A DNA stretch of 64,000 nt from Deltaproteobacteria bacterium HGW-Deltaproteobacteria-14 (GCA_002841945.1 PHBI01000006.1:453-64452); one strand, 5' to 3'. Counted from the first letter of the stretch, positions 3,294 through 10,733 are shown. The notes: generated by a model not told the origin, from the sequence alone. Numbers and translations: made by a program.

Positions 3294-3581
3294 TCACGAG
3301 CCGAACCTCTCCGCCAGGCGCTCCGCCGTGAGCCCGTGGAGCGTGCTCATGATGTTGTAGGCCGTCAGCTCGACCAGGAGCGTCGTCACCAGGGCGTGCT
3401 GCGCGTCGTCGAGGCGGCCCTCGACCGCCTTCATCGCCGCCACCAGCGCCGCCTCCTGGGTGGCCAGCTCGGCGGAGTCGATGACGCCGTCGGCCAGGGC
3501 GTCGGTGAAGCGCTCGAGCTGCGCCAGGTGCTGGTCGAGCTGGGGGAGCTCGGCGTCGGAAAGCCACTCGCTGCGGGGCAT
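3294..3581 (-). CDS. Small helical hypothetical protein (about 95 aa), last gene of the PspA-ABC-AAA operon
   Basis: ATG at 3581 (or GTG at 3587) after CAGGAGA; 25 nt downstream of the AAA stop; typical codon usage; contains ALADGVIDSAE. Confidence 0.8.
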   Translation of the reverse strand: MPRSEWLSDAELPQLDQHLAQLERFTDALADGVIDSAELATQEAALVAAMKAVEGRLDDAQHALVTTLLVELTAYNIMSTLHGLTAERLAERFGS

Positions 3582-3606
3582 GGTCACTCGTCTCTCCTGG
3601 TCACGG

Positions 3607-5430
3607 TCACTGGGCGGACAGGGTGCGCTTGATCCCGGCGATCCGCTCGGAGAGGCGCGCGCGGCCACCGAGCCGGGCGACCTCGGCGGTCACGGCGGGG
3701 GGGAGGAACTCGGCGTCGGTGCACTCGACGATGGCGGCGAGGCGCTGAAGCTCGCGCTCGAGGCCCTCGGTAGACGGCAAGAAGTCCGCGAGCACGCCGG
3801 TCAGCCGCTCGCGGGTGATGCGCGGCTCACCGGCCAGCAGCGCCGCTCGCCAGGCGCGCCCGACGACCCCCTCGATGTCGGCGCCGGAGAGCTGGCCGGC
3901 GTGGGGCACCTCGGGCACGTCGGCGGCGTCGAGGGTGGCGCCGGACTTCTTCGCGAGCACCGTGAACATGGCGCGGAGCTCGGACTGCGCGGTCGGGTAG
4001 AAGAGCGGGATGTGCACCTCCGCCCTGCCCTGGCGCTTGAGGTCGACCGGCAGCAGATCGGGCCGGGCCGTGAGCAACATCCACAGGATGCGCCCACGAT
4101 AGCGGGTGTCGCCCATCTGGGCGGCGATGGTCCCGAAGATCCGGCTCGAGAGCCCCGAGTCCCCGCCGTCGCTCTCGCGGTCGCCGAGCATCGCGTCGGC
4201 CTCGTCGATGATCACGACGACCGGCCCCATGCTGCGCAGCACGCCGAGCACGCGCTCGAGGTTGGCCTCGGTCTCGCCGACGTACTTCGAGCGGAAGTTC
4301 TTGAGCGTCACGCACGGCAAGCCCAGCGAACCCGCGGCGCACTGCGCCAGAAACGACTTCCCGGTGCCGACCGGCCCGGTCACGAGGTAGCCCATCGGGA
4401 CCGAGTCGAGGTGCCCCCTGGCGAGCAGCTCGGCGTCGTCGACGAGGCGGCGCTTGGCGGCCTCGTGGCCGACCACCATGTCGAGGCCCCAGCGCGGCTC
4501 GACGAAGTCCAGGAGCCCCTGGGCCTGGCGCTCGATGAGGCGCTTCTTCAGCTCGCGGAAGCGCGCGCGGTCGAGGCGGCGGCGCCCCTCGATGGTCGAT
4601 CGCACCAGCACGCCCATGTCGGTGAGCGAGATCCCGGCGGTCAGGCGCGCCAGCTCGTCGAGGCCGAAGTCGCTGAAGGCGGCGACGTCGTGGCCCTCGG
4701 CCAGCGCGTCGAGGTAGGAGCGACGGGCGTCCTCGTCGGGCAGCGGCACCTCGAGGGTGGCGACGTGGGGGTTCTGGGTCAGGCGCTCGGAGACCCGGGC
4801 GACCTCCTGATCGACCATGACGAAGGCGACGTTGAGGCGCTTGAGGTAGGGGCTCGCCGCCCAGTCGAGGAGCGTCACCAGGTGGCGCTGCTCTTTCTCG
4901 CCGAGGCGGTCGCCGCGGGGCGCGACGAAGGCCGCGTGGGTGATGACGATGGCGACGCTGAGGCGGTCCTGCTGGCGGGCGGTCACGTTCTTGAGGAGGA
5001 AGCGGTCGAGCAGCGCGAGGACGACCGACGGATCCTTCGGCACCCCCTCGAGGTCGGCGACCCGGCGGGTGCAGGTCGCGACCATCGCGCGCAGGCGCTG
5101 CTCGTTCGAGCCCGCGACGCAGCGGAGGCCGCGCGCGAGGTCGTAGGCGAGCACGAGGTCCCAGCGGCCAAAGAGCTGCTCGGCGAGGAACTCCTCGAGG
5201 GTGCCGAAGCGCGGCGGGACGCCCGGCGCCCCGCGCGGCCCGAGGGGCACGAGATCCCAGGTGTTGCCGTGGATGACGAAGGCCGAGGTCGTGCCGGAGA
5301 AGTACAGCTCCGCCAGGCGCGCCGCCCAGCCGGGGAACCAGGCGGGGAGCGCCGCCGAGCCTCCCTCCTTGTCGTCCGCTGATGGCGCCGGCGGGGTCGG
5401 CGGGGGGGCGGCGTCGGCGGGTGCACTCAT
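3607..5430 (-). CDS. Classical AAA+ ATPase (Vps4/Cdc48-like C-terminal module) with a long N-terminal region
   Basis: Walker A GPVGTGKS, pore loop SKYVGETE, Walker B IIDEAD, SRH TARPDLLPVDLKRQGR; ATG 5430 overlaps the upstream stop (ATGA). Confidence 0.9.
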   Translation of the reverse strand: MSAPADAAPPPTPPAPSADDKEGGSAALPAWFPGWAARLAELYFSGTTSAFVIHGNTWDLVPLGPRGAPGVPPRFGTLEEFLAEQLFGRWDLVLAYDLARGLRCVAGSNEQRLRAMVATCTRRVADLEGVPKDPSVVLALLDRFLLKNVTARQQDRLSVAIVITHAAFVAPRGDRLGEKEQRHLVTLLDWAASPYLKRLNVAFVMVDQEVARVSERLTQNPHVATLEVPLPDEDARRSYLDALAEGHDVAAFSDFGLDELARLTAGISLTDMGVLVRSTIEGRRRLDRARFRELKKRLIERQAQGLLDFVEPRWGLDMVVGHEAAKRRLVDDAELLARGHLDSVPMGYLVTGPVGTGKSFLAQCAAGSLGLPCVTLKNFRSKYVGETEANLERVLGVLRSMGPVVVIIDEADAMLGDRESDGGDSGLSSRIFGTIAAQMGDTRYRGRILWMLLTARPDLLPVDLKRQGRAEVHIPLFYPTAQSELRAMFTVLAKKSGATLDAADVPEVPHAGQLSGADIEGVVGRAWRAALLAGEPRITRERLTGVLADFLPSTEGLERELQRLAAIVECTDAEFLPPAVTAEVARLGGRARLSERIAGIKRTLSAQ

Positions 5431-9913: not shown

Positions 9914-9968
9914 CGGGTTCTCTCCTGGATTGACTCGTCAGGGTGGCCGCGCGAGCGGGCCGGTTGGT

Positions 9969-10733
9969 TCAGGCCTGCTCGAGCTCTACCTCGACCTCAC
10001 GCTCCTCGGCGGGGCCGAGCGCCTTCGCCGCGGGGGTCGCGGTGGCGGTCGCGGGGGACTTGAGGCCGAGCTCGATCTCGAGCTCCGAGAGCGCGTCCTC
10101 GGCCATCACCTGCTCCATGTGCTCCTCGGCCTCGATGCTGGCGATGCCCTCGGCCGAGAGATCCGCCGCCACCCGGGCCGTGCCGCGGTTGCGGTCGATC
10201 TTGCCCTGGATGACCTGCTCGAGCTGCCCGAAGTCGGTCGTCAGGTTGAGGTTGAAGCTCTCCGAGAGCTTGGCGATCTCCGCCTCCGCCTCGCTCATCT
10301 TGAGCTCGGAGTCGTACTTCTCGATCTTGTCGCGCACGCCGGCGAGCTGCTTGTTCGCGTGCTTTATCTTCTTGAGGTTGTTCGTGTACGCCTGCTCGTG
10401 CATCTCGAGCTGCGCGCGGTTCTCCGCGAGGTGCGCCTGCGCCTTCTTCAGCTCGAGCGCGAACTTGGCGGCGGTCTCGCGGTCGCCCGCCTTGAGGTAG
10501 GCCTTGGCTTGCGCCTGCAGCTTGGCGGCGTGCTTCTCGCCCTCCTGCACCTGGCGGGTGACCTTCTCGACGAGCCCGCGGTACTGCTCGAGCCCGACCC
10601 GGCCCTCCTTGAGCTCCTCGACCGCCCTGTCGTACTCGTAGCGCATCTGGGCGATGGGATCCGCCTCCCAGAACACGTTGGCGAGCTTGTTCAGCTGCGC
10701 CCGCATCGCGCTCCAGAACTTCTTGAAGATCAT
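9969..10733 (-). CDS. PspA/IM30 (bacterial ESCRT-III) family protein
   Basis: Amphipathic N-terminal MIFKKFWSAMRAQLNKL, EADP, long coiled coil with AKAYLKAGDRETAAKFALE, FGQLEQVI..KID; 254 aa. Confidence 0.85.
   Translation of the reverse strand: MIFKKFWSAMRAQLNKLANVFWEADPIAQMRYEYDRAVEELKEGRVGLEQYRGLVEKVTRQVQEGEKHAAKLQAQAKAYLKAGDRETAAKFALELKKAQAHLAENRAQLEMHEQAYTNNLKKIKHANKQLAGVRDKIEKYDSELKMSEAEAEIAKLSESFNLNLTTDFGQLEQVIQGKIDRNRGTARVAADLSAEGIASIEAEEHMEQVMAEDALSELEIELGLKSPATATATPAAKALGPAEEREVEVELEQA

Follow-up and report, generated by a model that had tools for sequence, protein, structure and literature searches.

A conserved operon encoding a divergent PspA-family protein and a two-domain AAA ATPase together with an ABC transporter that carries an OmpA-like domain

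Deltaproteobacteria bacterium HGW-Deltaproteobacteria-14 carries a seven-gene operon in which a divergent PspA-family protein is encoded together with an AAA ATPase and an ATP-binding cassette (ABC) transporter. The operon was studied in a stretch of 64,000 nucleotides (GCA_002841945.1 PHBI01000006.1:453-64452, around 70% G+C), which is referred to here as the window; positions are counted from its first letter. In order of transcription, the genes encode a PspA-like protein of 254 amino acids (aa), a fusion of a substrate-binding protein (SBP) with an OmpA-like domain, the permease and the ATPase of the transporter, a 299-aa protein with two transmembrane (TM) segments, the AAA ATPase, and a 95-aa protein. 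The genes are kept together far more often than chance would allow, and they fall into two separable modules, one built around PspA and AAA and the other around the transporter. The interpretation that we favor, with a probability of about one half, is that the operon provides for the ATP-driven turnover of a membrane PspA polymer at the inner membrane by a Cdc48-type ATPase, coupled to a peptidoglycan-tethered transporter or sensor.

Operons of this kind have been described before. Ravi, Anantharaman, Aravind and Gennaro (mSystems 2024; PMC11237479, section 18; first posted as a preprint, DOI 10.1101/2020.09.24.301986) reported operons that combine PspA with a two-domain AAA+ protein, an ABC ATPase and permease, and a PBPB-OmpA protein, and the section in question draws the same inference, namely that ATP-dependent membrane remodeling is linked to solute transport. 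The initial annotation of the window, made from the sequence alone, had suspected that surveys of PspA neighborhoods might already have noted this gene order, and that section shows the suspicion to have been right. The locus analyzed here belongs to the same class, as PspA, an AAA protein with an inactive N-terminal copy, the ABC ATPase, the permease, and the SBP/OmpA fusion are encoded in one operon.

Conservation of the Operon

The alignment of the AAA protein was used as a search pattern in a collection that represents each of 185,579 species by a single genome. At least 596 relatives were confirmed, of which the best 80 were kept; the fractions of loci given below describe these 80 closest relatives and not all of the at least 596. 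Fifty-two loci extend 6.2 kb or more upstream of the AAA gene, and in 49 of them the five upstream genes are all present and identically ordered; two of the remaining three have only the PspA-like gene, and one has no upstream gene of the set. The 95-aa gene follows the AAA gene in 53 of the 74 loci with room downstream, and was found neither in the 11 Gemmatimonadota loci of the AAA tree nor in three Rhodanobacteraceae loci. Given the 49 of 52 loci, the arrangement is far beyond chance. The carriers are members of Myxococcota, Acidobacteriota, Gemmatimonadota, and Planctomycetota, among them the cultured myxobacterium Paraliomyxa miuraensis SMH-27-4 (L062), whose operon comprises all seven genes, together with three Rhodanobacteraceae genomes that encode the AAA protein alone. 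The genes had been expected to be co-conserved in other genomes, and they do form one unit across at least four phyla.

The same pattern is seen in 401 sampled genomes of the window's own phylum. Homologues of the 299-aa protein occur in 28 of them, and matches to the AAA protein (E ≤ 1e-160) and to the PspA-like protein (E ≤ 1e-84) occur in exactly the same 11. In nine of the 20 regions examined around these 299-aa homologues, the genes for PspA, SBP-OmpA, permease, ABC ATPase, the 299-aa protein, and AAA follow each other in the same order, and seven of the nine also have the 95-aa gene.

A tree of 65 AAA sequences, obtained by a quick maximum-likelihood search in IQ-TREE, groups the sequences by phylum with five label changes (the minimum being four) and places the window's AAA protein inside a Myxococcota clade with 100% support. 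This phylum-wise grouping indicates that inheritance within phyla has been mostly vertical. In one divergent copy of the six-gene operon (L045, G119:C7), the AAA frame at about 3239-5035 is broken by in-frame stops (two TAG codons), so this gene could be a pseudogene or the result of an assembly error.

Two Separable Modules

The operon is composed of two modules, PspA-AAA-(95 aa) and SBP/OmpA-permease-ABC-(299 aa), each of which is found without the other. The transporter and the 299-aa protein are encoded with neither PspA nor AAA within 9 kb on either side in four loci (L041, L043, L044, and L051), and in two of these genomes, G216 and G181 (97% and 96% complete, respectively), a search at E ≤ 1e-60 found no AAA match genome-wide. 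The PspA, AAA, and small-protein genes occur without the transporter in three loci from Kofleriaceae/Haliangiales (L076, L078, and L099). These loci nest deep within the clade of seven-gene operons in the AAA tree, and the short form is therefore regarded as derived. One of the short-form genomes has the permease, ABC ATPase, and 299-aa genes on another contig with no AAA gene behind them; in the other two, whose completeness is unknown, no 299-aa homologue was found genome-wide. In a diverged clade, in which the AAA proteins share 38%–41% identity with that of the window, a PspA-like gene lies directly upstream of the AAA gene in all three loci examined (L133-L135); one of these PspA-like proteins reaches 29.1 bits on the PspA_IM30 profile, in register and under the cut-off. 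The firm link is that of PspA with AAA; the 299-aa protein is in the first place a partner of the transporter. In the initial annotation it was suggested to recruit the polymer, whereas its distribution ties it to the ABC/SBP-OmpA module.

The 299-aa gene is the immediate upstream neighbor of the AAA gene in 68 of 73 loci, and the two genes overlap in 65 of 83, by exactly 4 nucleotides in 26 (the start codons for this count were picked by a heuristic). Such close coupling of the 299-aa stop to the AAA start would be expected if the ATPase acted mainly on the membrane protein of 299 aa or on the transporter, extracting or resetting it as Msp1, FtsH, or Cdc48 do, with PspA only stabilizing the membrane at that place. 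The 299-aa protein also has a conserved C-terminal motif of its own, and one paralogous AAA gene (L137) has a 299-aa homologue (61.9 bits) upstream and no PspA-like gene. This explanation is at odds with the PspA-AAA pairs that have no 299-aa gene nearby, both in the short form (L076, L078, and L099) and in the diverged clade (L133-L135), with the two of three short-form genomes, of unknown completeness, in which no 299-aa homologue was found, and with the persistence of the transporter and the 299-aa protein in G216 and G181 with no AAA match at the threshold given above. We consider it unlikely and retain PspA as the preferred substrate of the ATPase.

The PspA-Like Protein

The 254-aa protein reaches 50.5 bits on PspA_IM30 (PF04012), where the cut-off is 33.9 (E 2.7e-13), its residues 1-217 aligning with profile positions 1-213 of 220. 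The initial annotation had called it PspA-like; the match lies above the Pfam threshold and recurs in all 65 orthologues at E ≤ 1e-3 (best 2e-15), PspA_IM30 being the sole recurrent family. By this threshold the protein is assigned to the PspA branch of the ESCRT-III superfamily, with a fold that is predicted only from family membership. The orthologues have a mean column identity of 72% across phyla. Residues 2-22 are predicted to form an amphipathic helix with a hydrophobic moment of 0.47, in which K5, N15, and N19 are invariant in the 65-row alignment, and are consistent with a membrane-binding helix. At the other end, the protein has a conserved tail with a K..GP motif (K237, G240, and P241, invariant in the same alignment).

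The same genome encodes a second, canonical PspA on a separate contig (G000 contig C106:14909-15568; L001:1498-2262, + strand), which scores 170.9 bits on PF04012 and matches solved Vipp1/PspA structures at E 9.7e-45. This paralogue is nearly unrelated in sequence to the PspA-like protein of the operon.

The AAA ATPase

The AAA domain called by Pfam in the 607-aa ATPase (PF00004, 77.6 bits, residues 349-475) is the only one of its family in the protein. The structure model, with a mean predicted local distance difference test (pLDDT) of 84.2 and low confidence at residues 1-33, points to two AAA folds. In Foldseek searches it was aligned over 513-625 columns to Rix7, p97, Cdc48, NVL, and AFG2 with E values of about 1e-20. 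The first region (D1, residues ~34-300) is modeled as an alpha/beta AAA-like fold that aligns as the D1 of two-domain AAA proteins and has no P-loop lysine; at the P-loop position, F51, G55, and D59 are invariant instead in the 65-row alignment. In the second region (D2), a Walker A motif (G352-K358), a Walker B motif (D409 and E410), a K-Y-V-G pore loop (382-385), and the arginines R466 and R469 are all invariant in 65 sequences. The names of these motifs are our assignment from what is known of classical AAA proteins: we take the arginines to be the fingers of the second region of homology and K-Y-V-G to be the aromatic-hydrophobic-glycine pore loop. With Walker A and B motifs, arginines, and pore loop present, the protein is placed by its sequence in the classical AAA clade (PF00004), and the ATPase looks catalytically competent. 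The model describes it as a two-domain protein of the Cdc48/p97 type with a dead D1 and an active D2.

The initial annotation had described the ATPase as Vps4/Cdc48-like, and the Vps4 half of that label is not borne out in detail: no MIT domain is matched in the Pfam scan, the protein has two AAA folds, of which the first is degenerate, and the score on the NCBIfam CdvC model is 37.9 bits against a cut-off of 650. The protein is not a true member of the Cdc48/p97 family either, as D1 has no P-loop lysine, the double-psi-barrel N-domain is missing, and the CDC48 model is matched with 65.0 bits against a cut-off of 802; PAN and FtsH models gave 58.6 and 42.7 bits. The best matches among PDB sequences are the two-domain unfoldases Cdc48/p97/VAT, Rix7/NVL, and AFG2, in an order that does not rank the families, since phmmer scores sum both domains of two-domain proteins. 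The phage family phrog_8638 (profile length 568, function unknown) matches residues 220-565 with 113.5 bits (E 2.1e-32), so that two-domain AAA proteins like this one are encoded by some phages.

The complex of AAA with the PspA-like protein was predicted in three runs from 65-row alignments in matching order, along with three controls. The scores were 0.38, 0.36, and 0.38, the best control reached 0.00, and the verdict was 'weak support'. The runs agree in at least 90% of contacts, and the pLDDT of the partner is 64-65. In the calibration of this score, 58 of 80 solved complexes and 2 of 110 mismatched pairs passed; the passes at or below 0.60 comprised only 7 of the 80 solved complexes along with both mismatches. 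These counts apply only roughly here, as alignments of our own were used for the prediction. The interaction of AAA with PspA that had been put forward for the operon receives a weak positive signal from these predictions (0.38 against controls of 0.00), with no interface reported.

The Transporter Module

The transporter is of the NitT/TauT type of ABC importers according to its sequence, Pfam thresholds being passed for the permease, the ATPase, and the NMT1/SsuA-type SBP. In the SBP fusion, NMT1 is matched with 34.4 bits (cut-off 20.5) at residues 192-318 and OmpA with 42.6 bits (cut-off 27.2) at residues 481-563, and a single hydrophobic segment, at N-terminal residues 2-31, could serve as an anchor. 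NCBIfam models of MotB, Pal, TssL, and YiaD also match the OmpA-like domain. The nearest NCBIfam models of the SBP are urea-type, taurine, and sulfonate SBPs, all under their cut-offs. The permease matches BPD_transp_1 with 88 bits and has 5-6 hydrophobic segments; the nearest models are SaoP (126.9 bits) and TauC (123.5 bits), both below cut-off. The ABC ATPase matches ABC_tran with 98.6 bits; of the NCBIfam models the taurine ATPase comes closest to it, with 206.9 bits where 357 are required. Its N-terminal extension of about 65 residues is rich in proline and alanine, and its start codon is uncertain.

The 299-aa protein accompanies these genes. Its AlphaFold model (pLDDT 83.6) is all helical, with an N-terminal amphipathic helix, a hydrophobic hairpin rich in glycine and alanine (residues ~27-66, with an invariant E57), and a bundle of long helices predicted to be cytoplasmic; the protein ends with a conserved P-x-I-L motif. 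No Pfam or NCBIfam family is assigned to it, and a Pfam search with 19 aligned members at E ≤ 1 gave scattered coiled-coil noise only. The 880 homologous clusters include none that is named and none with a Pfam domain. Foldseek found no match in the PDB at E ≤ 0.001, and the rows that came closest (E 0.3-1.5) were ABC exporters, designed helical proteins, BAR domains, and CdvB2. When 48,161 chains were compared in VIA-align, Z scores reached 10.2, with generic helical bundles only, a level within the noise for helical models. The fold searches with this model point to no new fold and do not exclude ESCRT-III. In a profile search of PDB sequences the best match, at E 0.0064, was an unrelated 101-aa protein.

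As a Snf7 protein, the 299-aa protein gives no match to PF03357 at E ≤ 10, its comparison with the PspA-like alignment in hhalign is that of unrelated proteins, and the CdvB2 rows from Foldseek have E values of 0.5-1.5 only. Its nearest neighbor by language model is the cluster of Rv2743c (PspM), at 0.88 and under the 0.9 line, which is a lead only; identity with PspM (Rv2743c, PF25587) was rejected as Pfam gives no match at E ≤ 10. In one further locus (L137:7692-8585, - strand), a 299-aa homologue with 61.9 bits on the hidden Markov model and no Pfam family is encoded directly upstream of a paralogous AAA gene, and no PspA-like gene was detected there.

The 95-aa protein, encoded by the seventh gene, has 14 invariant residues, including W6, D31, G32, E38, and Q42, and a mean column identity of 60% in a 32-row alignment. 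It has no Pfam or NCBIfam family, and no relatives of known function were detected; a profile search of the PDB gave nothing below E 0.13, and the protein atlas returned unnamed clusters only. Weak, scattered Pfam matches to GvpG (8 of 32 members, best E 0.014) were taken as noise, and a TerB-like motif was supported by no search.

Proposed Mechanism and Alternatives

The model starts from what was observed here, namely how the genes are ordered and conserved, which domains they encode, that the catalytic motifs are intact, and that the modules are separable; we infer polymerization, threading, the ligand, and the coupling. The PspA-like protein would bind the inner membrane via its N-terminal amphipathic helix and polymerize there. 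A hexameric AAA protein would engage the conserved C-terminal tail of the PspA-like protein and pass it through the D2 pore loops (K-Y-V-G). ATP would be spent on disassembling or remodeling the PspA polymer, as Vps4 does for ESCRT-III, with an ATPase that is not a Vps4 orthologue. The SBP would reach from its anchor in the inner membrane to the peptidoglycan, to which its OmpA-like domain would tie it, and the transporter module may set the place or the signal, be it a ligand in the periplasm or the state of the link between membrane and wall. The 299-aa protein may couple the transporter module to the PspA-AAA module. The envelope sensing and repair and the recycling of the polymer put forward in the initial annotation are hypothetical in the same way.

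A more elaborate form of this model would make the operon a bacterial counterpart of the ESCRT-III/Vps4 cycle that is gated from outside: the SBP would report a ligand or the membrane-to-wall distance via the ABC transporter, and a two-TM adaptor would signal to a Cdc48-type unfoldase with the 95-aa protein as cofactor. We put this elaboration forward only tentatively.

Several observations weigh against turnover of a PspA polymer by this ATPase. The first concern the PspA-like protein, whose clade is, by sequence, very divergent from canonical PspA. Neither its 65-sequence profile (at E ≤ 1) nor phmmer (at E ≤ 10) found a PspA or Vipp1 chain in the PDB, and hhalign aligned it with the canonical PspA of the same genome in register at a probability of only 8.4% (E 0.004). 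Others concern the ATPase, since the two-domain AAA architecture is not specific to PspA contexts. Full-length AAA paralogues (31%–38% identity) with no PspA-like neighbor occur in about 73 further genomes of the 401-genome phylum sample. In eight of 17 loci these paralogues lie near rplU (L21), rpmA (L27), obg, and sometimes rsfS (L139, L140, L142, L143, L144, and L146; further off in L136 and L148), which suggests a different, housekeeping role. Near the AAA orthologues of Rhodanobacteraceae (L113, L119, and L123; 57%–59% identity), the other six genes are all absent.

The complex prediction belongs here as well: a score in the band reached points to a wrong pairing more often than to a right one, except where the pairing is likely beforehand, and no interface was obtained. 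It is a small addition because the genomic evidence makes the AAA-PspA pairing likely. As to the coupling, the 299-aa protein segregates with the transporter and not with PspA or AAA, and its role as a coupler is a guess for this reason. The nearest NCBIfam systems for the transporter (taurine, SaoP/SaoA, nitrate, and sulfonate) are all under their equivalog cut-offs, so the substrate of the SBP is not assignable.

In L123, one of the Rhodanobacteraceae loci, the AAA gene lies between genes for a 1686-aa kinase/STAND/GAF/GGDEF protein and a pterin-binding (folP-like) protein.

Apart from extraction of the 299-aa protein, which was weighed above, the locus could be read by analogy as an ESCRT-like budding or sorting device, in which a PspA polymer and the AAA ATPase would drive vesiculation or invagination while SBP-OmpA selects or marks cargo, a role that has been proposed in archaeal ESCRT loci with a ProX-like binding protein. 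According to the relevant part of PMC10936438, archaeal ESCRT loci encode a ProX SBP, and an MIT-less Vps4-like ATPase is encoded beside a PspA-like gene; a polymer-forming protein, an ATPase, and a binding protein are combined here too. The parallel is one of analogy only, however: the operon encodes a complete importer set of permease and ATPase, the locus holds no hint of a cargo, and a Pfam scan of the seven proteins found no winged-helix, ESCRT-II-like protein. Polymer turnover is preferred to budding, which we regard as improbable.

An ordinary importer of a nutrient or osmolyte, with PspA and AAA riding along through regulation or shared transcription and no physical coupling, would agree with the presence of the transporter module alone in other genomes and with the location of the modules on different contigs in one genome. 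It would leave unexplained why the six- or seven-gene order is kept in 49 of 52 loci from four phyla while the flanks vary, and why the modules are joined by overlapping stop and start codons; moreover, a peptidoglycan-tied SBP would be unusual in a plain importer. This explanation is very improbable beside polymer turnover coupled to the transporter. An anti-phage defense system is scarcely credible, as the domain-level PADLOC matches (AAA to IetA, 49.5 bits; the OmpA domain to ZorB, 32.2 bits), the NCBIfam IteA score (47.7 bits against a cut-off of 510), and the phrog_8638 match to AAA (113.5 bits) are generic and far below family level, the 299-aa protein, 95-aa protein, and permease have no PADLOC match, the AAA tree follows phyla (five changes against a minimum of four), unlike that of a mobile defense island, and no mobile-element genes were seen beside the operon in the window.

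Organization of the Locus

The coordinates of the operon and its neighbors are collected in Table 1. Recomputed from the open reading frames (ORFs), they agree with the initial annotation in placing seven minus-strand genes, in the order given, at 3294-10733, with 4-base overlaps at 8180-8183, 7323-7326, and 5427-5430 and gaps of 55, 4, and 25 nucleotides elsewhere. The SBP stop and the permease start overlap by 4 nucleotides, and the ATG of the AAA gene lies in one ATGA sequence with the stop codon of the 299-aa gene. The start of the 95-aa gene is backed by homologues that begin with MARxSW and by an AGGAGA ribosome-binding motif upstream. Of the seven starts, that of the ABC ATPase gene (7326) is the least well supported, as homologues align only from about residue 15-65. 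Pfam and NCBIfam scans assign families to five of the seven proteins, and the domain assignments made earlier hold in these scans. The reported absence of pspB, pspC, and pspF was likewise confirmed, with no match to the PspB, PspC, and PspF families in the seven proteins or the scanned flanking ORFs.

Table 1. Features of the operon and of its surroundings in the window
Feature	Position	Strand	Remarks
PspA/IM30-family protein, divergent	9969..10733	-	254 aa
SBP::OmpA fusion, predicted membrane-anchored, periplasmic	8180..9913	-	577 aa
OmpA-like domain of the SBP fusion, residues 481-563	8225..8473	-	Pfam PF00691, E 7.8e-11
ABC importer permease	7323..8183	-	286 aa, BPD_transp_1
ABC transporter ATPase	6331..7326	-	331 aa from GTG at 7326, ABC_tran
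299-aa 2-TM helical protein, unnamed family	5427..6326	-	no Pfam/NCBIfam family
Type II classical AAA ATPase	3607..5430	-	607 aa, PF00004
Degenerate D1 AAA-like domain, residues ~34-300	4531..5331	-	modeled fold, no Walker A lysine
Active-type D2 AAA domain, residues ~343-548	3787..4404	-	invariant motifs in 65 sequences
95-aa protein, unnamed family	3294..3581	-	ATG at 3581
Ser/Thr kinase with Cache sensor domain	829-3108	+	convergent, downstream flank
Major facilitator superfamily (MFS) transporter	10812-12257	-	upstream flank, same strand as operon
Response regulator with EAL domain	12139-13668	+	neighbor
Arylsulfotransferase	13655-15358	-	neighbor
Glycine-cleavage T protein	15267-16670	+	neighbor

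The flanking genes are not kept beside the operon in its relatives, with the exception of the Ser/Thr kinase in a genome of the same genus. Because the flanking MFS transporter and the kinase are not conserved beside it, the operon is considered a unit of exactly seven genes. A scan limited to the sigma-70-type consensus found no promoter-like site, and no useful minus-strand terminator was seen after 3294. Among the listed sequencing runs that hold the operon there is no RNA run; all are DNA metagenomes from groundwater, cold-spring, bioreactor, and hot-spring samples, in which it mostly takes small shares.

Relation to Known Systems

The operon differs from the class described by Ravi et al. 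(PMC11237479) in one assignment: the TM partner is called a Snf7 homologue in the section cited, whereas no similarity to Snf7 or PspA was detected in the 299-aa protein. The 95-aa seventh gene and the two-module structure are not mentioned in the relevant passages of that paper and may be covered by its Text S2.2 or Table S3.

In eukaryotes and archaea, the Vps4 AAA ATPase takes apart ESCRT-III polymers. The likeness of the operon to the ESCRT-III/Vps4 (CdvB/CdvC) system lies in a protein of a polymer-forming superfamily encoded next to a classical AAA protein with an intact pore loop, in tight genetic coupling. Unlike in that system, however, there is no MIT domain, the ATPase has two AAA folds instead of one, the polymer-forming candidate belongs to the PspA branch and not to Snf7, and a transporter module is attached. 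In structure, both halves of the AAA protein are matched best by Cdc48/p97/VAT, Rix7/NVL, and AFG2, from which it differs by a D1 without nucleotide-binding motifs and by the lack of a double-psi-barrel N-domain.

With the classical Psp systems (PspF-ABC of E. coli, LiaIH of B. subtilis, and ClgR-PspA-PspM-PspN of M. tuberculosis) the operon shares a PspA effector and a small membrane protein as a potential anchor. It differs from them in that no PspB, PspC, PspF, LiaI, or Rv2743c family is matched, in that its AAA protein is of the classical unfoldase type and not a transcriptional activator like PspF, and in that the canonical PspA is encoded elsewhere in the genome.

Full-text literature searches, with most subscription journals outside their coverage, found no bench study of the operon. 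The operon context is not mentioned in the relevant passages of PMC9239133, and the part of a bioRxiv preprint (10.64898/2026.10.24.761521) that deals with phage PspA makes no link to an AAA unfoldase.

Conclusions

In the relevant section of a 2025 review (PMC7619361), a Vps4-like ATPase controlling ESCRT-III dynamics is described as seemingly missing from bacteria, and Makarova et al. (2024, PMC10936438) likewise state, in the passage concerned, that bacteria lack this machinery. The disassembly of bacterial PspA/Vipp1 polymers is therefore an open question. The idea that operons of the present class could be involved is already in print as a prediction; what is added here is its confirmation for this locus, the division into two modules, the addition of a seventh gene, the description of conserved tails, and the recognition of an ATPase that appears to be of the Cdc48 type and not of the Vps4 type. 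The present analysis is not a discovery, and its value lies in the confirmation and the sharper anatomy of a known, uncharacterized operon class. This class, in which a protein of the PspA family is found together with an AAA unfoldase that has a pore loop, is a concrete candidate for the machinery by which bacterial PspA polymers may be disassembled.

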